A DNA stretch of 10,236 nt from a virus (taxonomy: Duplodnaviria; Heunggongvirae; Uroviricota; Caudoviricetes), in the IMG/VR virus record IMGVR_UViG_2974644367_000001, positions 1 through 10,236 of that record; one strand, 5' to 3'. The notes beneath the pieces were generated by a model. It searched no databases. It had not been told where the DNA came from and saw only the letters and a program-made list of their open reading frames with translations. The translations under genes and the position numbers were made by a program. Each line of letters begins with the position of its first letter. The first letter of the stretch is position 1. Shown here in pieces: positions 1 through 10,236 of this stretch.

Positions 1-20
1 TTAGCCACTTTTACATTTCG

Positions 21-828
21 TTAACAACTTTTTAACATCTCTGCAACATTCTATTCAGTCATCTGCATAACATCTTGACAACATTCTATTAACATTCCTG
101 TTACAACTCTTTAACGATTCTTTAACACGGTCATGTTAAGAGTCTGTTACAACCCTGTTAAAATTTCTCGATACAAATTAACATTTCGATAACATGGTGA
201 TTCAACTGTAAAGCCATTTGTCAAGTCTAATAAATTCTCTTCAAACCCTTGACAATCCTGATTAGTTGAGTTGTTAAGACCCTGTTAAAATCCTGTTAAG
301 ATTGTTAAAGAGAATGGGTAAATGTTAACGGATTAGATGAATTGTTAAGAGCTTTGGAGAGTTGTTAAGAGACTGTTAAGAGAATGTTGCAGATATGTTA
401 AGATTTTGCAAAGGAACGGTTAACTTCTGAGAAGCGGCCACTAAGTAGATATACAATTAATGTCAAAAATTGCATAAATCTTCAAAGTGACTATCCAATT
501 AACAGTAAAGAACAGTGGTTAAGATACCCTGTCAGATATGATGTGAACCCTTGCAGTGTCTGGTTTAGAGAAGAGGTACTGTTAATTTTTAAAAAATAGA
601 AAATTATCTGAAAAGTTACTGTCTGTTAAGATGAGATGTTAAGACGTAGGTTAAGATTGATTTTAAGGCACTTCTCAGCCCTTCTCAGAGGACTTCTCAG
701 ACAAGATGAGCAAACATACAGCTTACCAAGATAACGCCTTAGAGAGGCTTGTATGAGGCTTATGACGAATCCCTATGAGGATATGTTAAGAGGTGTGTTA
801 AGACTGGATGTTAAGAAGTGGGTTAAGA
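21..828. repeat. Non-coding array of TGTTAAGA/GGTTAAGA motifs (TTAACA orientation in the first ~185 nt)
   Basis: Exact TGTTAAGA at 134, 272, 294, 343, 363, 374, 396, 624, 637, 784, 796, 809; GGTTAAGA at 517, 649, 821; reverse-orientation TTAACA at 21, 32, 89, 122, 178. No ORF of 60 aa or more in 1-876. Confidence 0.85.
671..700 (+). repeat. Triple CTTCTCAG short direct repeat
   Basis: CTTCTCAG at 671, 681, 693; reverse complement CTGAGAAG at 427-434. Confidence 0.7.
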
Positions 829-843
829 ATTTTTTAGAAAAAT

Positions 844-865
844 AAAAAGCCTCTGAAAAGAGGCT
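844..865 (-). terminator. Rho-independent terminator closing the minus-strand operon
   Basis: AGCCTCT-GAAA-AGAGGCT stem (848-865) preceded by an A run (U tract on minus), 12 nt past the stop of CDS 877-1071. Confidence 0.8.
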
Positions 866-876
866 GTATAGAGGAA

Positions 877-1071
877 TCACAGTTTGGTGACAGGTCTGCC
901 GTTAATCAACATGTTCAGATGGAATGTTCTCACAATCTCTTCAGGAAACTGTAAAGCAACTTTCTTCCTTATCCGTTCTAATGTATCTGCGTTGTACGGT
1001 AATCCTTTGAACTCTTGCAAGCATTCTGTCAATTCAGCATACTGCTCAGGTGTAGCGTTCTTGTACATCAT
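877..1071 (-). CDS. Hypothetical protein, 64 aa (MMYKNATPEQ...)
   Basis: ATG at 1071 overlaps the TGA of the upstream gene (ATGA coupling); GGAGG at 1073-1077. The track's TTG start at 1080 lies upstream of, and overlaps, this SD. Confidence 0.7.
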   Translation of the reverse strand: MMYKNATPEQYAELTECLQEFKGLPYNADTLERIRKKVALQFPEEIVRTFHLNMLINGRPVTKL

Positions 1072-1301
1072 TCCTCCCAATATGACCAGTTCTCTTCAGC
1101 GGTATCTTTAGGGTCATACAGACGCCATTCACGACGATACATGTTGAAGGACATTGCACTGTAGCTATCAGTGACCGCTTCCATCTCACCTTTAGCGAGT
1201 TTCTTAGCAGTTTTGGAGTCACAGCCAGCACCTATCAAGAGATTCTTAAAGGTACGTCTAAACTGCTTCTTCCATTGGTTGTTCGTGTAACGATGTTTCA
1301 T
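1068..1301 (-). CDS. Hypothetical protein, 77 aa, basic N-terminus and Trp/acidic C-terminus
   Basis: GGAGA SD 9 nt upstream; ATGA overlaps at both ends. Confidence 0.75.
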   Translation of the reverse strand: MKHRYTNNQWKKQFRRTFKNLLIGAGCDSKTAKKLAKGEMEAVTDSYSAMSFNMYRREWRLYDPKDTAEENWSYWEE

Positions 1302-1462
1302 GAGAAAATCTCTCCAATCAGTTTTCCAAGACCATCAAGCAGATAACACAGTAAGAATGTGATTCCACTTGCCAGATACGGGTTCATCCACTCGAAGTGA
1401 TACACTACAACAAACACTAAGAGTGTTGCAAGTACATTTTCAAGAAATCTTCCGAGAATCAT
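1298..1462 (-). CDS. Small two-transmembrane membrane protein, 54 aa (not in ORF track)
   Basis: Hand translation MILGRFLENVLATLLVFVVVYHFEWMNPYLASGITFLLCYLLDGLGKLIGEIFS*; AAGGAA upstream; its TGA overlaps the ATG of the next gene. Confidence 0.7.
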   Translation of the reverse strand: MILGRFLENVLATLLVFVVVYHFEWMNPYLASGITFLLCYLLDGLGKLIGEIFS

Positions 1463-1492
1463 TCCTCTATTTCCTTGTATGTGATTCAGGTG

Positions 1493-1741
1493 TTACAGCT
1501 TTTTGAAAGTGACTGTACCGTTCTTTTCAGCAGCTTCTTTAGCAGCGTTGAAACGGTCAATCATATCAGATTTGCCAGAGGCGATGGCCTGATAATCCGG
1601 CTTTTCCGCACCGCAGTATTCGCACTGCACTACGTGCTTCGGTTCACCACCCTCAATGCCAGTGATAAACTCAGACGGGATTGTCATCTCTTTAAAGGAA
1701 CAACCAGCACCTGATGCAGAACACTCTGTGAAGTTATTCAT
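1493..1741 (-). CDS. Hypothetical Cys-containing protein, 82 aa (possible zinc ribbon)
   Basis: GGAGA SD 5 nt before ATG at 1741 (track start at 1753 overlaps the SD); CSASGAGC and CEYC motifs. Confidence 0.75.
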   Translation of the reverse strand: MNNFTECSASGAGCSFKEMTIPSEFITGIEGGEPKHVVQCEYCGAEKPDYQAIASGKSDMIDRFNAAKEAAEKNGTVTFKKL

Positions 1742-1761
1742 GTTACTCTCCAATAAATGTG

Positions 1762-1784
1762 AAAAAAGGACTCCGAAGAGTCCC
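1762..1784 (-). terminator. Rho-independent terminator downstream of endolysin
   Basis: On minus: GGACTC-TTCG-GAGTCC followed by T6; C(UUCG)G tetraloop. Confidence 0.85.
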
Positions 1785-1791
1785 TATTATA

Positions 1792-2265
1792 TCAAACGCC
1801 ATAGTTGCTGTGCAAGTAGATTTCAACTTCTTTTGCACGTCTGTTTACCAGACCCTTGCTCACGACTTTCTTACCCTTGACAGTGATTTTATTCCACAGT
1901 GCAAATGATGCAGCAGCGGCTTCAAAGTTCCCTGCAAGATGATTTCTCAGTACGCTTGAAGAAGCAAAGTTAGTCAATCCCACGTTATACGCGAAGATTA
2001 CAAGAGCGTCAAACTGATTCTGTGTTGTGCCTTTAACGGCCTTGACCAGATACTTTTCAACACCTGATTTGAAGTCATGCAAATCCAGAGCAAGTTCGGC
2101 TTTAGCAGCTTCGAGAGTTGTTGTATCACCCATCTTAACTTTTCTTGCACGAACACTGGTATCACCGAATCCAATAGTCGGTACACCTGCAACATCCAGA
2201 TATGCTTTTGCACTGAACCCTTCCATTACTTCAAGGGCTTGCTGACCTTTTTGAGAAACTTCCAT
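1792..2265 (-). CDS. Endolysin, GH24 phage lysozyme (muramidase), 157 aa
   Basis: Catalytic triad E15-X8-D24-X5-T30 (EGFSAKAYLDVAGVPTIGFG), plus QNQFDALVIFAYNVG and GLVNRRAKE motifs; GAGGT SD; no N-terminal SAR/TM segment. Confidence 0.95.
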   Translation of the reverse strand: MEVSQKGQQALEVMEGFSAKAYLDVAGVPTIGFGDTSVRARKVKMGDTTTLEAAKAELALDLHDFKSGVEKYLVKAVKGTTQNQFDALVIFAYNVGLTNFASSSVLRNHLAGNFEAAAASFALWNKITVKGKKVVSKGLVNRRAKEVEIYLHSNYGV

Positions 2266-2287
2266 TCATGATTACCTCACTAAATAT

Positions 2288-2309
2288 AAAAAGGACTCCG
2301 AAGAGTCCC
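2288..2309 (-). terminator. Rho-independent terminator between the Ig-like gene and endolysin
   Basis: Same GGACTC-TTCG-GAGTCC hairpin plus T5; 25 bp identical to the copy at 1763-1787. Confidence 0.85.
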
Positions 2310-2315
2310 TATGAG

Positions 2316-2936
2316 TTATGCTGCTGCAACTGTCACAGTCGCTGTATCGGTCTTCGCACCATCTTCGGTTGTTACCGTAATAGTCGCTGTACCTTCAGCT
2401 TTTGCAGTCACCAGACCGTTAGCATCAACGGTTGCTACAGACTCGTCAGAAGACTTGTAAGTAACTTTGCTGTTTGTTGCATTGTCAGGAGAGACCGTTG
2501 CAGTCAACTGACGAGTACCACCTACAGCAAGATTGTTAGTTTTCGGTGCAATTGCTACACCAGTGACGCTAACAGTCGTCGCTTTGATAACAGCATTAAG
2601 CTGTGAGAAGAACGGTTTGACTTTATCAGTCGGGTTGAGGATTTCTTCAATCTCGTAACCGTTCAGGGACAGATACTGAATATCGTGCAGGAAGTCAACC
2701 AGACGAACAACACGCGAAGCACTGTACATATTGGTTGCAGAGAACGGTACAGCACCTTTCGGTGTATATGTTCCGGTCATCTCTGTAGCGACATCCATCA
2801 GACGGTTCCAGCTACCTGAGTAGAAATAGCGTGGGAAGTAATAACTCTGAACTTTGCTGAAGTCAGTAATTTTACCGTCTGCTTTCGCTTTAGCGATAAC
2901 CGCTGCCACGAACTCGTTAAAGGTTTCTCTAGCCAT
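2316..2936 (-). CDS. Probable virion protein with C-terminal bacterial Ig-like (Big_2) domain, 206 aa
   Basis: C-terminal VTGVAIAP...QLTATVSPDNATNSKVTYKSSDESVATVDANGLVTAKAEGTATITVTT is a typical Big_2 pattern; AAGGA SD. Confidence 0.85.
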   Translation of the reverse strand: MARETFNEFVAAVIAKAKADGKITDFSKVQSYYFPRYFYSGSWNRLMDVATEMTGTYTPKGAVPFSATNMYSASRVVRLVDFLHDIQYLSLNGYEIEEILNPTDKVKPFFSQLNAVIKATTVSVTGVAIAPKTNNLAVGGTRQLTATVSPDNATNSKVTYKSSDESVATVDANGLVTAKAEGTATITVTTEDGAKTDTATVTVAAA

Positions 2937-2939
2937 TTC

Positions 2940-3560
2940 TTATCCTTCGTTCACAATGGTTTGGAGTTGGTTTTGCATTGCTGCAAGGTTACGGCGCTTG
3001 TCAAGAGTGATGCCATACTTTTCAACATACTCTACAAGCTCTTCCTTAGACTCTTTAGACATTGCAATGCTCATATCAAAAGGTTCAGAAGATTTCACAG
3101 TGTCTTCATCGTTCGTCTTAAACAGAGGTTCGATGTCGTCCTGTACTGGTTCATTCACTGTCTCAGGAATCTGTTCAGAGACTTCAGCAGACAGACCGTT
3201 CACCGTAGCACTGTAAGCACCGAGAGTCATAGTTGCAGACTTCACAGTTGCACCAGTTGGTTGCTTAATCAGAGCATTGCTCAGTGTTCTTAAAAGAGAC
3301 TCAGCATTCGGTGAATGAATGATTGAATCACCATCTTTAAGGTCAGTCCGATGAACAATTACATCAGGAGAAACCTCTTCAATGTCCTGTTTAACAGTGA
3401 CTTTAAAGTTTGGATTGAAAGGTGTCTTTGCAACGAAAGTGTTAGGGACATATTTAAAGCCCTGACCAATCTGATTGTACATTTCACCAATCAACTCAAG
3501 TGCAGTAGTACCCGAAAGGGTAACTGACTCATCAGGATTGAATGTTCTTTGAACAGTCAT
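2940..3560 (-). CDS. Hypothetical protein, 206 aa; acidic linker and C-terminal HeH/Rho-N-like helical module
   Basis: Long ORF, ATGA-coupled to the upstream gene; C-terminal SKEELVEYVEKYGITLDKRRNLAAMQNQL resembles helix-extended-helix modules (inference). Confidence 0.8.
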   Translation of the reverse strand: MTVQRTFNPDESVTLSGTTALELIGEMYNQIGQGFKYVPNTFVAKTPFNPNFKVTVKQDIEEVSPDVIVHRTDLKDGDSIIHSPNAESLLRTLSNALIKQPTGATVKSATMTLGAYSATVNGLSAEVSEQIPETVNEPVQDDIEPLFKTNDEDTVKSSEPFDMSIAMSKESKEELVEYVEKYGITLDKRRNLAAMQNQLQTIVNEG

Positions 3561-3775
3561 TTCAAATTCCTTCTATTCAGTAGGTAAAGAATTTTCATCA
3601 AGATTCGATTCTCATAGTCAGAGATAAAAATCTCTTCAGAGTTTCTTGACCGATTATTCAGGTCAGTCATAACACCTGCGTATTCAGAGTGCATTCCACC
3701 AAAGGCCAAACGATAGAGAAGATAATCTTCGTAGACCTCTTGGATTTCTGAACTGTTTAATAGAATACTGGACAT
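3557..3775 (-). CDS. Hypothetical protein, 72 aa (MSSILLNS...)
   Basis: AGGT SD 7 nt before ATG at 3775; TGA overlaps the next ATG. Confidence 0.7.
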   Translation of the reverse strand: MSSILLNSSEIQEVYEDYLLYRLAFGGMHSEYAGVMTDLNNRSRNSEEIFISDYENRILMKILYLLNRRNLK

Positions 3776-3784
3776 TACGACCAC

Positions 3785-3937
3785 CTACATAATCTTACCA
3801 TAACCTTGAAAGAAACGGTATAATGCTAATTCGTCGTCAGAGTAGTGCTCTGAAAGATGACTCTTGGCCTTTTGGGGAGACTTCTGATTATCTTTCGCTT
3901 TCTTTCTGACGGGTTTGTTTAAAATTGGTTGAGTCAT
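3785..3937 (-). CDS. Small basic hypothetical protein, 50 aa (not in ORF track)
   Basis: MTQPILNKPVRKKAKDNQKSPQKAKSHLSEHYSDDELALYRFFQGYGKIM*; AGGA SD 7 nt upstream; stop overlaps the SD of the next gene. Confidence 0.65.
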   Translation of the reverse strand: MTQPILNKPVRKKAKDNQKSPQKAKSHLSEHYSDDELALYRFFQGYGKIM

Positions 3938-4290
3938 TAGTAAATCCTAATAATGCCTCGCCCTACAGCTATGGAGTATATTCTCATAATATGGGTCTAA
4001 AGTCAAGCAATTTGTTGCATAAAATCGAAGAAAAAGTCATGAAAATCATCATTTTAACCCGATTTTTACTCATTTATGACGAAAAACCTCAAATATATGG
4101 TGATTCTCCACTTTACAGGTCTCTTTTTGTATGCTACACTCCGTTCTGTCATCTGAACAGGTTCTTTTTAAAGATTTCTTCTTATATTCTATCTGTTATC
4201 TATCTATCTCTAATTATCTCTTAAAAGTCTTTAAAGATAACTGTAAAGACGCACTCACGCCCACAAGCACACGCGAGGGCAAGAAACACC

Positions 4291-4318
4291 TTGACAAAAT
4301 GTCTATTAAGGTTAAAAT
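4291..4318 (+). promoter_or_regulatory. Sigma70-type promoter upstream of terS
   Basis: TTGACA (4291-4296), 16-nt spacer, TAAAAT (4313-4318). Confidence 0.6.
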
Positions 4319-4354
4319 TATTACTTGACATAATGTTTGATTGAGGATTTAATA

Positions 4355-4720
4355 ATGGCTAGAAAACATGCTGGTCAGTTCCGCAAGGGGCAATCTGGCA
4401 ATCCTGCTGGAAGACCGCGAGGAAGCAGAAATAAATCTTCTCTTGTCAAGGCTCAATTACTGCTTGACGACTCAAGTGAGATGTCTGTAAAATTGTTCCG
4501 CGCTCTTGTTACAAGAGATGCAGCACAACTTGCAGAGTTCGGACTTTCACCCTCTGACGTAAATGTCAAAGCGATGATGGAAGCAGCGAAAATCATTCTC
4601 ACTCAGTCTTCTTCAGAGATGAAAGCACTTGCATCTGACAAGAAAAAAGAAGATGATGTACCGGAACAGAAAGAGGAAGCTCCAACGTTCCAGAATGTTG
4701 CAAGAATTGGTTCAAAATAG
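4355..4720 (+). CDS. terS: Probable terminase small subunit (DUF5681-type N-terminus), 121 aa
   Basis: GAGGA SD 7 nt before ATG 4355; N-terminal QFRKGQSGNPAGRPRGSRNK motif typical of DUF5681/TerS; terL lies downstream on the same strand. Confidence 0.7.
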   Translation: MARKHAGQFRKGQSGNPAGRPRGSRNKSSLVKAQLLLDDSSEMSVKLFRALVTRDAAQLAEFGLSPSDVNVKAMMEAAKIILTQSSSEMKALASDKKKEDDVPEQKEEAPTFQNVARIGSK

Positions 4721-4723
4721 TTG

Positions 4724-4752
4724 TTGACAGATACGAAGTTGAATGTTACCTT
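4724..4752 (+). promoter_or_regulatory. Sigma70-type promoter opening the RNA island
   Basis: TTGACA-17-TACCTT with TGn extended -10. Confidence 0.55.
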
Positions 4753-4796
4753 GGTATCTGTTCTGAGAGAGCTTCAGAGGTTTCACAGAAATCTGT

Positions 4797-4869
4797 GCGG
4801 GTGTGGTGTAAAAGGGGAACATACATGGTTTTGCCCATGTGGATGAGGGTTCGACTCCCTTCACCTGCT
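4797..4869 (+). ncRNA. Atypical tRNA-like element (6-nt anticodon loop, G3.U70, no encoded CCA)
   Basis: Cloverleaf: GCGGGTG/CACCTGC acceptor, GTGT/ACAT D stem, CATGG-TTTTGC-CCATG, GAGGG-TTCGACT-CCCTT T arm. Confidence 0.7.
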
Positions 4870-4959
4870 GCTCTGAAGGTAGCCTGATGATGAATCGGGA
4901 GTAAATAACACGAGGCGACAGAACGCGCCTACTCTTAGAAAAATAAATTGAAAATCTTG

Positions 4960-4988
4960 TTGACAGGCTCCAATAAGTGCGATAAGAT
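4960..4988 (+). promoter_or_regulatory. Sigma70-type promoter for the tRNA cluster
   Basis: TTGACA-17-TAAGAT with A-rich UP-like tract upstream, just ahead of tRNA-Pro. Confidence 0.75.
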
Positions 4989-5011
4989 AGCTTCATAGTT
5001 TTAGAAAACAT

Positions 5012-5089
5012 CTCCGTTTAGCTCAGTATGGATAGAGTAGGCCGTTTGGGGCGGTCGGGTCGAAGGTTCAAATCCTTCAACGGAGACCA
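5012..5089 (+). tRNA. tRNA-Pro(TGG)
   Basis: CTCCGTT/AACGGAG acceptor, loop TT-TGG-GG, TTCAAAT T loop, ACCA. Confidence 0.95.
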
Positions 5090-5096
5090 AATTAAT

Positions 5097-5171
5097 GTCG
5101 TAGAAGGCAAACGGTTAGCCACCTGACCTTCAATCAGTTGCTCGCGGGTTCGAATCCCGTCTACGACTCCA
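5097..5171 (+). tRNA. tRNA-Glu(TTC)
   Basis: GTCGTAG/CTACGAC, loop CC-TTC-AA (C33), TCCA end. Confidence 0.9.
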
Positions 5172-5209
5172 AAATAAAGTTTGACAGGTACTTTGAATTC
5201 TGTCAGTAT

Positions 5210-5286
5210 GGGTCAGTAGCTTAATTGGGAAAGCATCTCACTTGCAATGAGAAGGATGAGGGTTCAAGTCCCTCCTGTATCCACCA
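5210..5286 (+). tRNA. tRNA-Ala(TGC), bulged acceptor stem
   Basis: GGGTCAG pairs with CTG(T)ATCC with one bulged T; G3.U70 and A73; loop CT-TGC-AA; ACCA. Confidence 0.85.
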
Positions 5287-5462
5287 AAACTTTAATGGTC
5301 TGGTCAAATTCTCCCTTAGAATCTTGACTGATAAACTCTCTGTAAGGATTCGCGGTTGCTTGCAGAGCTTTGGGATAGCATCTTCTAAGTCACGTGCTGA
5401 AGAATGCGAAATTGGAATGACCTTGCCGAAACGGTTAGTTTGTCCAGAGCCATTAAAGTTTT
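5286..5462 (+). ncRNA. Structured non-coding RNA of unknown family (~175 nt)
   Basis: Perfect 13-bp closing stem AAAACTTTAATGG/CCATTAAAGTTTT extended by TCTGG/CCAGA; internal hairpins CTCTGTAAG/CTTGCAGAG and GCATCTTC/GAAGAATGC. Confidence 0.65.
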
Positions 5463-5464
5463 AT

Positions 5465-5539
5465 AGCGGGATGGAGCAGTGGTAGCTTGCCAGTTTCATT
5501 ATCTGGAGGTCGTAGGTTCGAATCCTACTCCCGCTTCCA
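5465..5539 (+). tRNA. tRNA-Met(CAT), fMet-like body without initiator determinants
   Basis: AGCGGGA/TCCCGCT, D region TGGAGCAGTGGTAGCT resembles tRNA-fMet; loop TT-CAT-TA; TCCA. Confidence 0.9.
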
Positions 5540-5547
5540 AATTTAAA

Positions 5548-5623
5548 GGGTTTGAAGCACATATGGATGTGCGGCTGGCTGTTAACCAGATGGTAGTGGG
5601 TTCGAGTCCCACCTTTCCCGCCA
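5548..5623 (+). tRNA. tRNA-Asn(GTT), three U.U mismatches in acceptor
   Basis: GGGTTTG/CTTTCCC; loop CT-GTT-AA; GCCA. Confidence 0.85.
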
Positions 5624-5629
5624 ATTTAT

Positions 5630-5712
5630 GCGTCTATGGCAGAGATGGTCAATGCAGCGGTCTGTAAAACCGCCCCGAAAGGTTACTGGTTCGAGTCCAG
5701 TTAGGCGCACCA
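5630..5712 (+). tRNA. tRNA-Tyr(GTA)
   Basis: GCGTCTA/TAGGCGC, loop CT-GTA-AA, variable arm, ACCA. Confidence 0.95.
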
Positions 5713-5718
5713 AACAAT

Positions 5719-5792
5719 TGCGAAGTAGTGAAATGGCATCATACTGGTTTCATTATCCGGTGTAGGTAGTTCGAATCTACCCTTCGCATCCA
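5719..5792 (+). tRNA. tRNA-Met/Ile2(CAT), second copy
   Basis: TGCGAAG/CTTCGCA, loop TT-CAT-TA, TCCA. Confidence 0.85.
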
Positions 5793-5871
5793 AATTACTC
5801 AGTTTGGGTTGTTCTGAGTGACGTGTAGGGTATTACCCTTTAGAGCGTCGAATCAAAGACTCCTTAAAGTT

Positions 5872-5948
5872 GGGGATGTGGCAGACTTGGTAATTGTACC
5901 GCACTGTCTATGCGGAATATGAGGGTTCAAATCCCTTCATCCTCGCCA
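5872..5948 (+). tRNA. tRNA-Asp(GTC)
   Basis: GGGGATG/CATCCTC, CCGCA-CTGTCTA-TGCGG, GCCA. Confidence 0.93.
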
Positions 5949-5951
5949 ATT

Positions 5952-6170
5952 TCACCGGAAAGACTACCGTCCAACTGGTAACTGCCGTCTGGTATATGCG
6001 GTGATTCTACTTTGTAGCGTTCCTCTTATGAGGTGAATGGATGTCTCCTTTCCAAAGCACATTTAGATGAAATATACAGGTCTACAGCTTTTACTTAAAC
6101 GTTTCACCTCCTTGCGTTTAAGGTTTGGGCTACATAACTGAGTAGTCTCGCTCAGGGCGACAGAGAGACA
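5952..6170 (+). ncRNA. Putative structured RNA with anti-Shine-Dalgarno loop
   Basis: TCACCG/CGGTGA, TGTAGC/GCTACA, and CTTAAACG-TTTCACCTCCTTG-CGTTTAAG hairpin; no ORF. Confidence 0.5.
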
Positions 6171-6174
6171 AAAT

Positions 6175-6265
6175 GGAAGGGCAAATCGACTGGCGACGAA
6201 AACGGTCTTGAAAACCGCCGAGCGTTAATAGCGCCTTGAGGGTTCGACTCCCTCTCCTTCCGCCA
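6175..6265 (+). tRNA. tRNA-Ser(TGA)
   Basis: GGAAGGG/TCCTTCC, loop CT-TGA-AA, long variable arm, GCCA. Confidence 0.93.
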
Positions 6266-6266
6266 C

Positions 6267-6341
6267 GGTCTAATTAGCTTATATGGTAAAGCAACGGTCT
6301 GAAAAGCCGTGGAACAGGGTTCGAATCCCGATAGACCGCCA
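6267..6341 (+). tRNA. tRNA-Phe(GAA), irregular acceptor and T stems
   Basis: ACGGT-CTGAAAA-GCCGT anticodon arm; GGTCTA/TAGACC; the T stem pairs only with a bulge; GCCA. Confidence 0.75.
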
Positions 6342-6348
6342 AATTCAA

Positions 6349-6424
6349 CGGTGTGTAACTCAATTGGCAGAGTGGGTGGCTTTTAACCACAGGGTTGCAG
6401 GTTCGATGCCTGTCACACCGACCA
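6349..6424 (+). tRNA. tRNA-Lys(TTT)
   Basis: CGGTGTG/CACACCG, loop CT-TTT-AA, ACCA. Confidence 0.93.
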
Positions 6425-6432
6425 AACAAAAT

Positions 6433-6509
6433 GGACTATTAACTCAACTGGTCAGAGTACCCGACTCTTAATCGGGAGGTTCAGGGTTCGACTCCCTGAT
6501 AGTCTACCA
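6433..6509 (+). tRNA. tRNA-Lys(CTT)
   Basis: GGACTAT/ATAGTCT, CCCGA-CTCTTAA-TCGGG, ACCA. Confidence 0.95.
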
Positions 6510-6520
6510 AATTTCTTAGT

Positions 6521-6593
6521 AGTGGTATGGCAGAGATGGTCATGCACTTCCTTCATACGGAAGCCTACATCGGTTCAAGTCCGATTACCACTT
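6521..6593 (+). tRNA. tRNA-Met/Ile2(CAT), third copy, no encoded CCA
   Basis: AGTGGTA/TACCACT, CTTCC-TTCATAC-GGAAG; followed by T-CTA instead of N-CCA. Confidence 0.85.
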
Positions 6594-6607
6594 CTAAGAG
6601 ATTTAAT

Positions 6608-6682
6608 TGTGGGTTAGCATAAATGGTAATGCAAACGCCTGATAAGCGTTAGAAGAGGGTTCGATACCCTCACCTACGACCA
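6608..6682 (+). tRNA. tRNA-Ile(GAT)
   Basis: TGTGGGT/ACCTACG, AACGC-CTGATAA-GCGTT, ACCA. Confidence 0.93.
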
Positions 6683-6688
6683 AACAAT

Positions 6689-6764
6689 CGGGGTATGGAG
6701 TAATTGGCAACTCTACGGTTTTTGAGGCCGTCAGTTTTCGGTTCGAATCCGAATGCCCCCGCCA
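6689..6764 (+). tRNA. tRNA-Gln(TTG)
   Basis: CGGGGTA/TGCCCCC (1:72 mismatch), ACGGT-TTTTGAG-GCCGT, GCCA. Confidence 0.92.
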
Positions 6765-6770
6765 AACGAT

Positions 6771-6847
6771 GCACCCTTAGAACAAACGGATAGTTCCACT
6801 GTCTTCTAAACAGTTAGTTACAGGTTCGAATCCTGTAGGGTGTGCCA
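6771..6847 (+). tRNA. tRNA-Arg(TCT)
   Basis: GCACCCT/AGGGTGT, ACTGT-CTTCTAA-ACAGT, GCCA. Confidence 0.95.
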
Positions 6848-6853
6848 AAAAAT

Positions 6854-7020
6854 GGGTGATTCTGCAACGGTGGAGCTAGGCCAGCTTTGAAGCCGTAAAA
6901 TGGGAATGCAGTATCTACTGACGATAGTTCTTGAAAGTAGTTTGTGAAGCCGGACTAACAGATTATGAGTAATGGGCGACAATAGGTCGTGGAGAGGTTC
7001 GAATCCTTAATCACTCGCCA
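6854..7020 (+). ncRNA. 167-nt tRNA-mimic RNA: acceptor stem, T arm and CCA around a ~130-nt multi-hairpin insert
   Basis: GGGTGATT (6854-6861) pairs with AATCACTC (7009-7016), then G-CCA; GAGG-TTCGAAT-CCTT T arm; no D arm or anticodon arm recognisable. Confidence 0.75.
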
Positions 7021-7028
7021 AATTTAGG

Positions 7029-7057
7029 TTGACAGGTGAAACAATCTCCTGTAATCT
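7029..7057 (+). promoter_or_regulatory. Sigma70-type promoter ahead of the tmRNA-like element
   Basis: TTGACA-17-TAATCT. Confidence 0.65.
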
Positions 7058-7063
7058 TTACCG

Positions 7064-7264
7064 TAGTTTTCGTTGGGTATGCTTCTATTTTTATCATTTA
7101 AAATAAATGCAAATGATGCTCAATTTCTGGCAGTGGCGTAATAGCTAAACACCAGTAGGGTCTTCCGACTCCCTATCACCGAATTCGGCGTAGAGTTGTC
7201 CCGTCTATGATTGCCAAACGGGGCTTCAACCTAAAAGGTTCTTACGAGAGTCTTTCAGATTGAA
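7064..7264 (+). ncRNA. tmRNA-like mRNA domain (tag ANDAQFLAVA**) without an attached tRNA-like domain
   Basis: AATAAAT-GCA resume context; 10-codon tag 7109-7138; TAA TAG in a hairpin loop; two H-type pseudoknot pairings downstream; no T arm/CCA end. Confidence 0.75.
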
Positions 7265-7265
7265 T

Positions 7266-7342
7266 GGCGTAATATCCCAATTGGCAGAGGAAGCAGGTTC
7301 AAACCCTGTTCAGTGTGGGTTCGACTCCCACTTACGCTACCA
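7266..7342 (+). tRNA. tRNA-Leu(CAA), short variable loop
   Basis: GGCGTAA/TTACGCT, GCAGG-TTCAAAC-CCTGT, ACCA. Confidence 0.9.
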
Positions 7343-7472
7343 GATTCAGATGTCTTTATAATCGTCCCTGAAATGACGGGGCAATTAAGGAGGTGGTCTG
7401 TATCTCCTGACTGTCAGGATAACCAGTAGAGCGTTAATAACACTGAGAAGTGTGATGAGTCGCTTGATAAAT

Positions 7473-7548
7473 GCAAGTATGATGTCAATAGGTAACATGG
7501 CGTCCTTCCAAGTCGCTCTTGCGGGTTCGAGTCCCGCTACTTGCTCCA
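7473..7548 (+). tRNA. tRNA-Gly(TCC)
   Basis: GCAAGTA/TACTTGC, loop CT-TCC-AA, U73, CCA. Confidence 0.93.
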
Positions 7549-7554
7549 AATTAT

Positions 7555-7630
7555 AGGGGGTTAGTTTAACTGGCAAAATATCGGCTTCCAAACCCGTAAG
7601 TTGAAGGTTCGAATCCTTCACCCCTTGCCA
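7555..7630 (+). tRNA. tRNA-Trp(CCA)
   Basis: AGGGGGT/ACCCCTT, G73, loop TT-CCA-AA; only 3 pairs in the anticodon stem. Confidence 0.8.
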
Positions 7631-7639
7631 ATTCAGAAT

Positions 7640-7714
7640 GCCTCCATCATATAAGGGCTATTATGCCTGTTTTGTAATCAGGTCATCGCGGTTCGAATCC
7701 GTGTGGGGGCACCA
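7640..7714 (+). tRNA. tRNA-Thr(TGT)
   Basis: GCCTCCA/TGGGGGC, loop TT-TGT-AA, ACCA. Confidence 0.92.
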
Positions 7715-7720
7715 AATAAT

Positions 7721-7796
7721 ACTCGTATAGCTCAGATGGTAGAGCGGCATCTTTACACGTTGCTGGTCAGGCGTTCGAGTCGCCTTGCGAGTACCA
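7721..7796 (+). tRNA. tRNA-Val(TAC)
   Basis: ACTCGTA/TGCGAGT, loop TT-TAC-AC, ACCA. Confidence 0.93.
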
Positions 7797-7802
7797 AACA
7801 AT

Positions 7803-7880
7803 GGCTGTGTAGCCCAACTTGGCAGAGGCACTACGCTAAGAACGTATTCAGTGTGGGTTCGAATCCCTCCACAGCTACCA
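7803..7880 (+). tRNA. tRNA-Leu(AAG), A34, short variable loop
   Basis: GGCTGTG/CACAGCT; TACG-CTAAGAA-CGTA puts AAG at 34-36; A73; CCA. Confidence 0.8.
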
Positions 7881-7886
7881 AACAAT

Positions 7887-7963
7887 AGACCTTTATCTTA
7901 AATGGACAGAGACTCAAGCTACGAACTTGAGAGGTTCGGGTTCGAATCCCGAAAGGTCTTCCA
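7887..7963 (+). tRNA. tRNA-Arg(ACG)
   Basis: AGACCTT/AAGGTCT, TCAAG-CTACGAA-CTTGA, TCCA. Confidence 0.95.
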
Positions 7964-7965
7964 AT

Positions 7966-8042
7966 AGGATGTTCGTATAGTTGGCCTATTACACCGGACT
8001 CTGAATCCGGTTACGATGGTTCGAGTCCATCACGTCCTGCCA
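7966..8042 (+). tRNA. tRNA-Gln(CTG)
   Basis: AGGATGT/ACGTCCT, CCGGA-CTCTGAA-TCCGG, GCCA. Confidence 0.93.
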
Positions 8043-8048
8043 AACAAT

Positions 8049-8125
8049 AGGTGATTACCCCAATTGGCAGAGGGTAGGAGCTTAAACCTCCGATGTTGAG
8101 AGTTCGAATCTCTCATCACCTACCA
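8049..8125 (+). tRNA. tRNA-Leu(TAA), short variable loop
   Basis: AGGTGAT/ATCACCT, loop CT-TAA-AC, ACCA. Confidence 0.9.
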
Positions 8126-8127
8126 AT

Positions 8128-8205
8128 GGAGTTGGTATCATAAATGGATAATGACCCTGACTGTGAATCAGGTCTATGCGGGTTCGAATCCCGTCCTTCT
8201 CCCCA
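8128..8205 (+). tRNA. tRNA-His(GTG)
   Basis: G-1:C73 pair, GAGTTGG/CCTTCTC (two U.U), CCTGA-CTGTGAA-TCAGG, CCA. Confidence 0.92.
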
Positions 8206-8211
8206 AATTCT

Positions 8212-8304
8212 GGAAGATTAACCCTAAATGGTAAGGGAAGTGTTTGCTAAACACTCAGTAACCGAGAAATCGGCGTACCAGTTCAAGTCTGGTATCTTCC
8301 TCCA
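8212..8304 (+). tRNA. tRNA-Ser(GCT)
   Basis: GGAAGAT/ATCTTCC, AGTGT-TTGCTAA-ACACT, long variable arm, TCCA. Confidence 0.93.
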
Positions 8305-8320
8305 ATTCGTAAGGTGTATA

Positions 8321-9055
8321 ATGGCTGTCACAGACCAAACTAAGCAAATCTTCAGTTTAATGCAGTCTGGTAAGGCTTTTAAAAATCCTCTGGCGAGTGC
8401 ATCATCAAGTCTGTCTTCAAGTATTAGTTCCGGTACATCTGGAATGAACACACTGAAGAGCAACCTGACAAATCCAACCGCTCAGACGGCTTTACAGAAT
8501 GCTGGCATTAACACGACATTACTGACAAGTGGTGCAGGGGCTTTAACCTCTTCAGCTTCGACTGTTACAAGTCTCGTCAGTTATGGTCAGACCTCAGTTA
8601 ACGAGTTCTCTCAGAGAATGCAGTTGGCAGAGGGTTACAAGAGTTCTTACGAATCTCTTACAGGCACTTCCGCAGGTTGTTCACCTTTCAACTCCGTAAT
8701 GGGTGTTGCACAAGGAATCGGACAGTCAGCAATGAATGCTTACAACACGGTGATGACCGGAGTTAACTCAGCTATCAGTGCATTGAATGATGCTATCGCA
8801 AAAGGTCTTGCAACTATTCAGGACTTAGCAGCAGCAGCATACGCAAAGATTAATGAGCTTATCACAAAGGCCAAAGAGTTTGCACAGAAGGTTGTTGATA
8901 TGATTGCTGAAGAAGCAAGCCTAATCAGTGATTACCTGAAGACTCAAGCCAGTGCGTTTATGGCGAAGTATATGCCAGATTGGTTCAAGGACTCTTGTAA
9001 GAGTGCTGTGACAAATAACGTGGCAACCGATGAATTGAAAGCAGCAGCGAAATAA
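8321..9055 (+). CDS. Hypothetical Ser/Ala/Thr-rich helical protein, 244 aa
   Basis: AAGGTG SD before ATG 8321 (MAVTDQTKQIF...); the track's start at 8228 lies inside tRNA-Ser(GCT). Confidence 0.88.
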   Translation: MAVTDQTKQIFSLMQSGKAFKNPLASASSSLSSSISSGTSGMNTLKSNLTNPTAQTALQNAGINTTLLTSGAGALTSSASTVTSLVSYGQTSVNEFSQRMQLAEGYKSSYESLTGTSAGCSPFNSVMGVAQGIGQSAMNAYNTVMTGVNSAISALNDAIAKGLATIQDLAAAAYAKINELITKAKEFAQKVVDMIAEEASLISDYLKTQASAFMAKYMPDWFKDSCKSAVTNNVATDELKAAAK

Positions 9056-9056
9056 T

Positions 9057-9133
9057 GGCGCGATGACTGAAACACAAATGGTGTCCGTCTGCAAAACGGA
9101 AAAATGAGGGTGGGATTCCCTCTCGCGTCTCCA
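9057..9133 (+). tRNA. tRNA-Cys(GCA), non-canonical T loop
   Basis: GGCGCGA/TCGCGTC, U73, TCCGT-CTGCAAA-ACGGA; T loop TGGGATT. Confidence 0.8.
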
Positions 9134-9264
9134 ATAAGTCCTCTTGAGAGTCAGGGTATCGCTACCTCTTGGCTCTTGGGAGGCAGCTTTCGAGTCATAC
9201 TTAAAGTGTCTTTCCGAAGAGTTTTTGAGTATGTTTCGGCATACAGGCAGTTGCGGTTTCCTTT

Positions 9265-9287
9265 GTGGCGCTAGTCGCCACCTTTTT
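9265..9287 (+). terminator. Possible terminator
   Basis: GTGGCG-CTAGT-CGCCAC followed by C and T5. Confidence 0.5.
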
Positions 9288-9328
9288 CCAAACTGTCAGT
9301 AGTGTGTACATTTTCAACTCATTTCTTC

Positions 9329-9352
9329 GGAGGCTTTTTAGCCTCCTTTTTT
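9329..9352 (+). terminator. Rho-independent terminator ending the tRNA island transcript
   Basis: GGAGGCT-TTTT-AGCCTCC followed by T6. Confidence 0.85.
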
Positions 9353-9369
9353 CGTTTATGGAGCAAAGA

Positions 9370-9552
9370 ATGAACGAACAACAGATTAAAGAACTGCAAC
9401 TTAAAGCCGAACTGTATGACCTCTCAAAATCCAATCAGGAGATGAGTGCGGTTATCAGAAACGTAATTATCAGCCTTGCAACCTCACTGAAGGTTGACCC
9501 GAATGAGTATAACCTGCAAGAGCTATTGGATAAGGTCTCAGAAGCTGTGTAA
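9370..9552 (+). CDS. Small coiled-coil protein, 60 aa; possible gp57A-like tail-fibre chaperone
   Basis: GGAG SD 6 nt before ATG 9370 (MNEQQIKELQLKAELYDL...); the track's start at 9265 lies upstream of the terminator. Confidence 0.75.
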   Translation: MNEQQIKELQLKAELYDLSKSNQEMSAVIRNVIISLATSLKVDPNEYNLQELLDKVSEAV

Positions 9553-9584
9553 GCCTCTGTGAGCTATTTTATGGAGTAACCCTA

Positions 9585-10236
9585 ATGAACCTTACCGAAG
9601 TTAAACAGCAGCGTCTGAGGGACGTACAGGCCGTTTTAGCGGGTACTATCAAACTTGAGCCAGCAGTTGTAAAACTTCTCGCCAAGTATGGAAAGCCAGT
9701 TGAAAAACTGCTTCCAAGTCAAATCTTGACATTGAGAAAGTATACGCTTGAAGAGGTTGAACTTCTCATGAGGCTGTTGACAAATAAGAAGTTTATTGCC
9801 CCACAGCCCGGCTCTCAAGAGGCATTGCTGAACACCACAACTGACATCACACTCTATGGTGGTGCGGCTGGTTCCGGTAAGACGGTTGCTATCCTGATGG
9901 ATGCCCTTCAGCATAAAGATGACCCTGATTACTACGCTGTATTCTTCCGTAAAAACACCACACAGTTATCAGGTGGTCTTTGGCCTGCCGCTAAAAAATT
10001 GTATGGCATGTTCGGGGGAGTTCCACATGAACAGAAGATGGTGATTCAATTCCCTTCTGGCGCATCAATCAAGTTCTCTTACATGGAACTGGAAAAACAC
10101 GCAGAAGCCCATCAGGGTATCGAATACTCAGCAATTTATTGGGATGAGTTTACTCACTTCTCACAGAGTCAGGTTGATTACCTGATGACTCGTATGCGTT
10201 CTGGTGCAGATGGTGACTCGTACATGAAATGTTCGA
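9585..10236 (+). CDS. terL: Terminase large subunit, 5' part (runs off the window; absent from ORF track)
   Basis: Hand translation open to the window end: MNLTEVKQQRL...PQPGSQ (adenine binding)...LYGGAAGSGKT (Walker A)...SAIYWDE (Walker B); GGAG SD 8 nt upstream. Confidence 0.96.
   Translation, partial: MNLTEVKQQRLRDVQAVLAGTIKLEPAVVKLLAKYGKPVEKLLPSQILTLRKYTLEEVELLMRLLTNKKFIAPQPGSQEALLNTTTDITLYGGAAGSGKTVAILMDALQHKDDPDYYAVFFRKNTTQLSGGLWPAAKKLYGMFGGVPHEQKMVIQFPSGASIKFSYMELEKHAEAHQGIEYSAIYWDEFTHFSQSQVDYLMTRMRSGADGDSYMKCS

Follow-up and report, generated by a model that had tools for sequence, protein, structure and literature searches.

To our knowledge, transfer-messenger RNA (tmRNA) has always been described as one molecule, or as two pieces of one gene, that needs its tRNA-like head. 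Here we describe an RNA without this head. It is encoded in a stretch of 10,236 nt (the window; positions 1 to 10,236 of the IMG/VR record IMGVR_UViG_2974644367_000001) that belongs to a phage, where 7062-7265, within a tRNA array, is a real gene of ~205 nt for a structured RNA with a tmRNA-type message part and no tRNA-like domain (TLD). We call it the tag RNA; it and all of its features lie on the plus strand.

How does the tag RNA compare with the systems closest to it? As in the one-piece tmRNA (SsrA; RF00023), a resume context stands before GCA, a 10-codon tag beginning AND runs into a hydrophobic, Ala-terminal tail, a helix-5-type hairpin carries the stop in its loop, and H-type pseudoknots come after it. 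Unlike tmRNA, however, the tag RNA has no acceptor stem, D-loop analogue, T arm, CCA or pseudoknot 1 (pk1); it has two pseudoknots after the frame where the host tmRNA has three, measures ~205 nt as against 363 nt, reaches 11-16 bits against an Rfam threshold of 47 for tmRNA, and begins with an antisense copy of the host message region, a feature of no tmRNA. The coding piece of the two-piece, circularly permuted tmRNAs of Alpha- and Betaproteobacteria and cyanobacteria (RF04321, RF01849, RF01850) is likewise a separate RNA bearing the tag frame, joined to the tRNA-like part solely by base pairing, and its models score the family best. A true coding piece starts with a 5′ acceptor strand, though, and has pk1 and a partner from the same gene, whereas the tag RNA has no acceptor strand and its presumed partner is the complete host tmRNA, bound via the message region. 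The resemblance to trans-acting antisense small RNAs lies in a short 5′ region with extended, imperfect complementarity to a specific host RNA; in contrast to these, the target would be a stable non-coding RNA rather than an mRNA, and the body of the regulator is a template-like copy of its target.

Phage tmRNAs have been surveyed by Hudson, Lau and Williams (2014; PMC4131195), who list them in mycobacteriophages, in Bacillus phage G and, as a TLD-only 'mini-tmRNA', in mycobacteriophage DS6A, with no enterobacterial phage sequence among them. The DS6A RNA is also a phage-borne half of a tmRNA and is thought to interfere with host trans-translation (PMC4131195), but it is the opposite half: a tRNA-like head with no tag, where the tag RNA is a tag with no head. 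Neither this survey of phage genomes nor Rfam contains a tag-only tmRNA derivative, and full-text literature searches returned no description of the tag RNA. Architecturally, it is a new variant of tmRNA descent, absent from the literature that we searched.

Genomic Setting and Distribution

The window is part of an 84.7-kb phage genome with direct terminal repeats and shares 96-100% identity with the phiEa21-4/phiEa104 group of Erwinia phages (Ounavirinae, Kolesnikvirus). ARAGORN detects in it one array of 27 tRNA genes and no tmRNA, and Rfam at curated thresholds reports tRNAs only. The tag RNA is housed in a 418-nt gap of this array, flanked by the end of tRNA-Arg(UCU) at 6847 and the beginning of tRNA-Leu(CAA) at 7266.

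A distant BLAST search with 7029-7265 led to 587 phage records. While Felixounavirus retains 7060-7192 of the window at ~80% identity, the core, 7100-7190, is also found in Ackermannviridae (Klebsiella phage May), Schitoviridae (IME11) and Chaseviridae (Orgeat, TH23), in the P22-like HK620, in several siphoviruses (ZCKP8, pIS4-A) and in one Vibrio phage. At least 119 viral contigs with a tag RNA emerged from a two-motif pattern search; the carriers comprise FelixO1-like, Vi1-like and N4-like phages, HK620, P1-sized contigs and many siphoviruses; prophage copies are present in 4 of 301 sampled enterobacterial genomes. The RNA is annotated in none of the copies examined, and neither the window nor any of 67 related loci yields a tmRNA call in ARAGORN. 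The tag RNA is a member of a large family across unrelated enterobacterial phages and prophages, carried by well-studied phage groups and yet unannotated in hundreds of genomes.

A Conserved Fold and a Conserved Tag Frame

The part of the RNA that follows most of the tag is built from one hairpin and two pseudoknots. The helix-5-like hairpin (7127-7155) pairs CTGG 7127-7130 with CCAG 7152-7155 and TGGC 7134-7137 with GCTA 7144-7147; it contains the last tag codons and has the first stop in its loop. It is followed by pk2 (7156-7188; TAGGG 7156-7160 with CCCTA 7171-7175, CCGA 7165-7168 with TCGG 7185-7188) and pk3 (7191-7224; TAGA 7191-7194 with TCTA 7204-7207, GTCCCG 7198-7203 with CGGGGC 7219-7224). 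Covariation was assessed in an alignment of 44 diverse members for the outer and inner helix 5, both pk2 stems and pk3 stem 1, and 16 of the 21 pairs change on both sides: three of four in the outer helix 5 (92% paired), two of four in the inner, three of five in pk2 stem 1 (97% paired), and all four in both pk2 stem 2 (92% paired) and pk3 stem 1. Doubly changed cells number 142, as against 40.8 ± 8.9 in shuffles, none of which reaches the observed value (0/500), and 89.3% of cells are paired, compared with 75.3% in shuffles and 31-46% when the partners are slid by 1-3 columns. MAFFT misaligned pk3 stem 2, for which an anchor-based extraction, noisier than the count of aligned pairs, yields at least 10 distinct, mutually complementary versions across the family. 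The fold is thus real, beyond chance, and the first-pass annotation of the window, made from its letters alone, had placed the stop-bearing hairpin and both pseudoknots correctly.

Upstream of the hairpin, an A/U-rich linker with a tmRNA-type resume context (7093-7108; AATAAAT 7102-7108) leads into the tag frame, which runs from GCA to GCG (7109-7138), encodes ANDAQFLAVA and closes with the tandem stops TAA TAG (7139-7144), all as first annotated. Throughout the family, (A/G/C)TAAAT immediately before GCA is nearly invariant. The frame has exactly 10 codons in 88 of 91 distinct copies, with codons 1-3 partly fixed by the pattern through which copies were collected, while the other two frames span 1-23 codons. 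Synonymous and non-synonymous single-base differences, counted over pairs that are not phylogenetically independent, stand at 781:1373 in the tag frame versus 75:2403 in the +1 frame and 412:2058 in the remaining one. Third positions vary most in codons 2-4 and 9-10, and the stop is interchanged among TAA, TAG and TGA without ever being lost. The encoded tags, among them ANDDLMMVAA, ANDDVVLMAA, ANDEQFLAVA, ANDNVFLAVA and ANEEMYLAVA, all begin AN(D/E) and finish in Ala after a hydrophobic stretch. By its length, substitution pattern and stops, the frame proposed for the window holds up across its relatives and appears to behave like translated coding sequence.

Not every early statement on this frame survived. 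An in-frame ATG, said to be missing, does exist in the window (7079-7081), 10 codons upstream of GCA; that the tag has no Shine-Dalgarno sequence (SD) is true of this ATG as well. In 79 of 88 family members, there is no ATG between the nearest upstream in-frame stop and GCA, and in 63 of them that stop stands only 8 codons upstream. As neither a start codon nor an SD is conserved in the family, translation of the frame would need a tmRNA-like resumption.

The kinship with tmRNA is visible in Rfam below its cutoffs. The only non-tRNA matches in the array gap are tmRNA models, which in the window attain 16.5 bits (RF04321) and 13.4 bits (RF01850), against gathering scores of 47 and 84; in relatives, they rise to 33.1 bits for RF04321 (IME11; gathering score 47) and 26.2 bits for RF01849 (Orgeat), with RF00023 at 11-12 bits. 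The best local matches fall on the linker and resume context, 7093-7108. Rfam finds no TLD in 7029-7265, and in the whole phage genome tmRNA matches are limited to T loops inside tRNAs. Neither fold nor alignment contains a pk1-like pairing upstream of the resume codon; where pk1 would lie, the 45 nt before this codon match the reverse complement of the host tmRNA. The element had been described as having no T arm or ACCA, D-loop analogue or pk1, and ARAGORN, Rfam, fold and alignment find none of them, nor do the tmRNA models of the two programs call a tmRNA in 7029-7264. Measured against tmRNA proper, then, the RNA has the resume codon without start codon or SD, the Ala-terminal tag and the stop-bearing helix 5 followed by pseudoknots, but neither TLD, pk1 nor Rfam score; measured against a two-piece coding piece, it has neither the 5′ acceptor strand nor the gathering score. 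It is a tmRNA-derived message module outside both classes.

A divergent member of the family is found in the Vibrio phage vB_VhaS_MAG7 (locus L272, 701-800), between a DNA circularisation gene and a tail gene; its arm reads GTAGTTTTCATTG and its 13-codon tag ANDESNGEMRLVA.

The 5′ Arm Is Antisense to Host tmRNA

The first 31 nt of the RNA, 7062-7092, form an arm complementary to host tmRNA nt 80-109, which contain the A-run ahead of the resume codon, this codon itself (GCA) and tag codons 2-7. The first annotation of the element mentioned neither this arm nor the tRNA-like gene just upstream, at 6854-7023. The complementarity falls into three blocks of 14, 3 and 8 pairs, namely CGTAGTTTTCGTTG at 7062-7075, UGC at 7080-7082 and CTATTTTT at 7085-7092. 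The first of them offers 14 contiguous pairs with tmRNA nt 95-108 (tag codons 2-7), a run equalled by 1/300 and 0/300 shuffles, and a local alignment of the arm to the reverse complement of tmRNA gives z = 6.5. The same holds for the family: in each of more than 40 distinct representatives, the arm finds its match in the reverse complement of tmRNA within nt 68-108, with z-scores of 2.5-10.9 that for most arms no shuffle reaches (0/300) and for the weakest up to 11 do, while forward-strand control alignments score at the level of shuffle noise. In energetic terms, the duplex of 7062-7092 with tmRNA 80-109 is predicted at -30.0 kcal/mol, compared with -13.6 ± 2.9 kcal/mol for shuffled arms (0/500) and -13.9 kcal/mol for the arm with the phage's own message region. 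Likewise, contiguous arm pairs average 10.4 with the host tag versus 6.5 with the phage's own tag, and the phage tag has diverged at precisely those codons that the arm pairs in the host tag. These tests rely on contiguous runs, local alignments and short-window duplexes; full-length RNAduplex was uninformative owing to long interior loops. As expected of an antisense RNA, the complementarity exceeds chance and has a consistent target site.

The target itself is shared between hosts: the resume and tag region is identical in the ssrA genes of E. coli, Salmonella, Klebsiella, Pantoea and an Erwinia species, and all hosts of the prophages found carry the standard tmRNA tag sequence.

A wastewater contig matches the window exactly from 7089 on and differs upstream of it, where it includes TTGACA. 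It may be a relative with a replaced antisense arm, or an assembly chimera.

A Model for Template Replacement and Its Alternatives

What could such an RNA do in the infected cell? The combination of a tmRNA-like fold, coding-type frame conservation, a missing TLD and complementarity to host tmRNA, each of which is directly observed, leads us to think that the tag RNA very probably acts on trans-translation and that the phage probably blocks or rewrites the host degradation tag on unfinished proteins. The specific model that we favor has the tag RNA dock on host tmRNA, mask the tag template found there and present its own instead, and we assign it a probability of somewhat under one half (about 0.45). 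Its furthest-reaching form, in which docking onto alanyl-tmRNA-SmpB and the template swap give every rescued protein in the infected cell a phage-chosen tag, is slightly less probable still.

In this model, the tag RNA would have lost the TLD and pk1 and acquired the 5′ antisense arm in their stead. Once transcribed from a promoter of its own or released from the transcript of the tRNA array, with RNase P at tRNA-Leu setting the 3′ end, it would anneal through the arm to the single-stranded host message region, over a stretch that begins ~10 nt before the resume codon and extends through tag codon 7, and so mask the host template. The 3′ end of the arm would pair beside host pk1, and the phage resume context and frame would thereby emerge where the host's would. 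The intermolecular helix would sit 16-22 nt upstream of the phage GCA, a distance comparable to that of pk1, 11 nt upstream of the host GCA. As alanyl-tmRNA-SmpB enters a stalled ribosome, translation would then resume on the phage frame, so that rescued proteins end in (A)ANDAQFLAVA in place of (A)ANDENYALAA. Ribosome rescue would be kept, while recognition of the tag by host adaptors and proteases would be altered. Pairing in vivo, translation of the phage frame in trans and the effect of the altered tag are all projected from the sequences.

Several points weigh against this model. The transcript, the pairing of the arm and the tag are predictions from sequence. We know of no direct precedent for the translation of a template whose sole tie to tmRNA is an intermolecular helix; in natural two-piece tmRNAs, acceptor and P2 helices hold the pieces together. 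The pattern used for collecting family members included GTTTTCGT and AAATGCAAAYGA, which makes the arm and codons 1-3 look more uniform than they are, and GTTTTCAT variants do occur, one of them in an E. coli phage. On the side of the frame, the substitution counts suffer from the non-independence of the pairs, and helix 5 places a constraint of its own on codons 7-10, which contribute part of the coding signal. No family members were found in hosts with a different tmRNA tag: the tag RNA is present in none of five named genomes (including two Yersinia and one Proteus) and in none of 28 genomes of the genus Yersinia, and when viral contigs were searched for arms adapted to Yersinia or Proteus, the 206 matches were due to chance and lacked a tag frame throughout. 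Finally, the fold predicted for the RNA on its own pairs a portion of the arm with codons 3-5 of the phage tag, and the sole Kolesnikvirus substitution in this pairing preserves the pair, so the arm could have an intramolecular role; it is also possible that this predicted pairing is a switch that opens on tmRNA binding.

The main rival to docking, itself doubtful, is that the RNA is purely an antisense inhibitor or decoy, which would bind host tmRNA and shut down host tagging or trans-translation without its own frame ever being translated. The tmRNA-like body would in this case perhaps also bind S1, SmpB or RNase R, and the tag frame would have been retained as structure or as a protein-binding mimic. 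This explanation draws on the same complementarity evidence as the docking model, and it accommodates the facts that an RNA without a TLD is unable to enter the ribosome alone and that the last four codons, lying in helix 5, are structurally constrained. Inhibition by a half-molecule has a precedent in TLD-only RNAs, reported to inhibit tmRNA (PMC4131195). What it leaves unexplained is the frame: the constancy of its 10 codons, the stop that is swapped and always kept, the variation of the unpaired codons 2-4 mainly at third positions, the Ala-ended hydrophobic tags and the retained resume context. A truncated tmRNA acting as a decoy was also part of the first interpretation of the locus, which was right in that the RNA is a TLD-less message module with a very probable action on trans-translation. 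Given an arm that is antisense to the host resume and tag region, however, we prefer a blocked or replaced host template to a passive decoy for proteins.

Less likely again, indeed improbable, is that the RNA serves phage tRNA operons as a structured leader or processing element, or soaks up another factor as a sponge, in which case its likeness to tmRNA would be historical, that of a degraded captured fragment with no current role in trans-translation. The genomic neighborhood lends itself to this idea, as the tRNA cluster begins ~460 nt downstream of the 5′ motif in many phages, pR'/qut and the terminator tQ bracket the HK620 copy within the late leader, and some members have extra hairpin modules and T-arm-like inserts. 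Decay, though, would not preserve a 10-codon frame, its stops, the resume context and a host-matching arm, and this preservation spans Ounavirinae, Ackermannviridae, Chaseviridae, Schitoviridae, P22-like and siphoviral genomes.

The flanking modules themselves are seen in many members outside the Ounavirinae, in which repeats of a hairpin module, consisting of GGTAAGAGCA, a variable insert and TGCTCTTTCC, flank the tag RNA on both sides (HK620 locus 1060-1150 and 1320-1420; loci L005 and L006; prophage loci L259-L261). Some of the inserts contain T-arm-like hairpins (GGGTTCGAATCCC) without acceptor strand or CCA. The modules may be processing sites or extra domains of a longer RNA of ~450 nt.

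The proposal that the element is the coding half of a split tmRNA gained no support: no phage RNA supplies a matching acceptor half. That the message 7062-7265 and a phage tRNA-like head form a two-gene tmRNA is most unlikely. Two candidates for the head were considered in the window. The first, at 6854-7023, is an RNA of 167-170 nt directly upstream of the tag RNA, with an acceptor stem of 7-8 bp (GGGTGAT/ATCACTC), a T arm whose loop reads TTCGAAT, the base G73 and an encoded CCA; its ~115 internal nt form three hairpins, and neither ARAGORN nor Rfam calls it. Its ends and first 60 nt are invariant, and 12 variable sites in its middle mostly keep the helices paired, through wobble or compensatory changes, which argues that it is probably a functional RNA. 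Position, acceptor stem, T arm, CCA and helix-keeping variation would all suit a head, but the RNA carries G2.U71 and G73 in place of G3.U70 and A73, closes its own acceptor stem, is complementary to the tag RNA and to host tmRNA at chance level only (equalled by 119/300 and 70/300 shuffles), and is restricted to 27 Kolesnikvirus records, whereas the tag RNA occurs in more than 580. The second candidate, a tRNA-like gene at 4797-4869, does have G3.U70, the alanine identity pair; its anticodon loop measures 6 nt (TTTTGC), U73 is present and CCA is not encoded. It forms a full cloverleaf, however, which, going by established structural knowledge, would clash with the mimicry of the anticodon arm by SmpB. 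A Felixounavirus relative offers a further possible head, a D-armless tRNA-like gene with G3.U70 and A73 directly after the tag RNA; most family members, however, have no such gene nearby, and in the longer members none of the T-arm-like hairpins in the inserts is followed by an acceptor strand and CCA, as a 3′ tRNA-like half would be.

An ordinary small protein, be it MLLFLSFKINANDAQFLAVA from the ATG at 7079 or the product of an overlapping +1 frame from the ATG at 7108, which overlaps the resume site (AAATGCA), can be dismissed as extremely improbable despite these two start codons, since the in-frame ATG has no SD and is contradicted at the family level by the counts given above, and the +1 frame is 4-12 codons long with a synonymous to non-synonymous ratio of 75:2403.

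Were the docking model true, its mechanism would be new. Viruses would have a new means of seizing a host quality-control pathway, tmRNA would have its first template-swapping parasite, and nature would offer an example of a ribosome that switches to a message tethered by nothing but an intermolecular helix. The dependence of some phages on ssrA has long been known, and docking would partly explain it; it would also provide a natural tool for rewriting degradation tags in vivo. If the RNA were only an antisense inhibitor, it would still be the first known natural RNA antagonist of tmRNA.

Promoter and RNA Ends

A promoter-like site is found by direct reading at 7029-7057, with TTGACA at 7029-7034, a 17-nt spacer and TAATCT at 7052-7057, which would place the start at ~7062-7066, the first bases of the antisense arm. 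The promoter proposed for the element is therefore present in its parts, but the -10 box has only 3/6 consensus bases and the site stays below the threshold of a promoter scan. In its favor, both hexamers are invariant in four Kolesnikvirus genomes, in which the spacer is variable, and Felixounavirus and siphoviruses have TTGACA-N17-TATAGT or TAGATT at the equivalent position and distance. The RNA could instead be excised from the tRNA-array transcript. Between the -10 box and the tRNA, Kolesnikvirus genomes differ at a single site.

At the other end, two small hairpins, AACC/GGTT at 7228-7240 and AGTCT/AGATT at 7249-7261, are predicted in the 3′ tail (7228-7265) by the minimum free energy fold, the covariation analysis covering the other helices only. 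No variation is seen in the tail among Kolesnikvirus genomes, and its conservation in Felixounavirus is partial. Its end adjoins tRNA-Leu(CAA), which ARAGORN places at 7266-7342, such that the element does run straight into this tRNA, as first annotated, and RNase P cleavage would define its 3′ end. A metatranscriptome covers the region as three contigs (6700-7005, 7008-7232 and 7238-7596), which, as assembled contigs, do not allow transcript ends or expression to be read from them.

The abutting tRNA-Leu(CAA) is itself unusual in having just 77 nt and a short variable loop, unlike the class II bacterial leucine tRNAs with their long arm.

Neighboring RNAs

The RNA at 6854-7023 was also considered as a mini-tmRNA of the DS6A type and rejected as such, given its G2.U71, G73, length of 167-170 nt and three internal hairpins. 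By description, it resembles the stable RNAs C and D (species 1 and 2) of T4, which are likewise oversized, have tRNA-like ends, lie in the T4 tRNA cluster and have no known function. The tRNA-like gene at 4797-4869 lies between two TTGACA promoters, upstream of a proper tRNA-Ala(UGC) at 5210-5282; ARAGORN lists it as 'tRNA-???', and Rfam scores it as a tRNA with 49.5 bits.

The D-armless gene mentioned above belongs to the Salmonella phage DaR-2019b (MK965970; locus L001, 1703-1786). Besides G3.U70 and A73, it has an encoded CCA, the anticodon loop CTTCTAA (UCU) and a 20-nt extra arm, and its Rfam tRNA score of 31.7 bits is barely above threshold. The sister phage BPS17L1 has a normal tRNA-Arg(UCU) at this position.

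Further downstream in the window, a 130-nt non-tRNA spacer (7343-7472) separates tRNA-Leu from tRNA-Gly. Complementarity between it and 6854-7023 does not exceed chance. The spacer includes AAGGAGGTGGTCTGTATCTC, which is conserved at the equivalent place in Felixounavirus (locus L001 ~1790-1920, locus L002 ~1780-1915), and it may be another small RNA.

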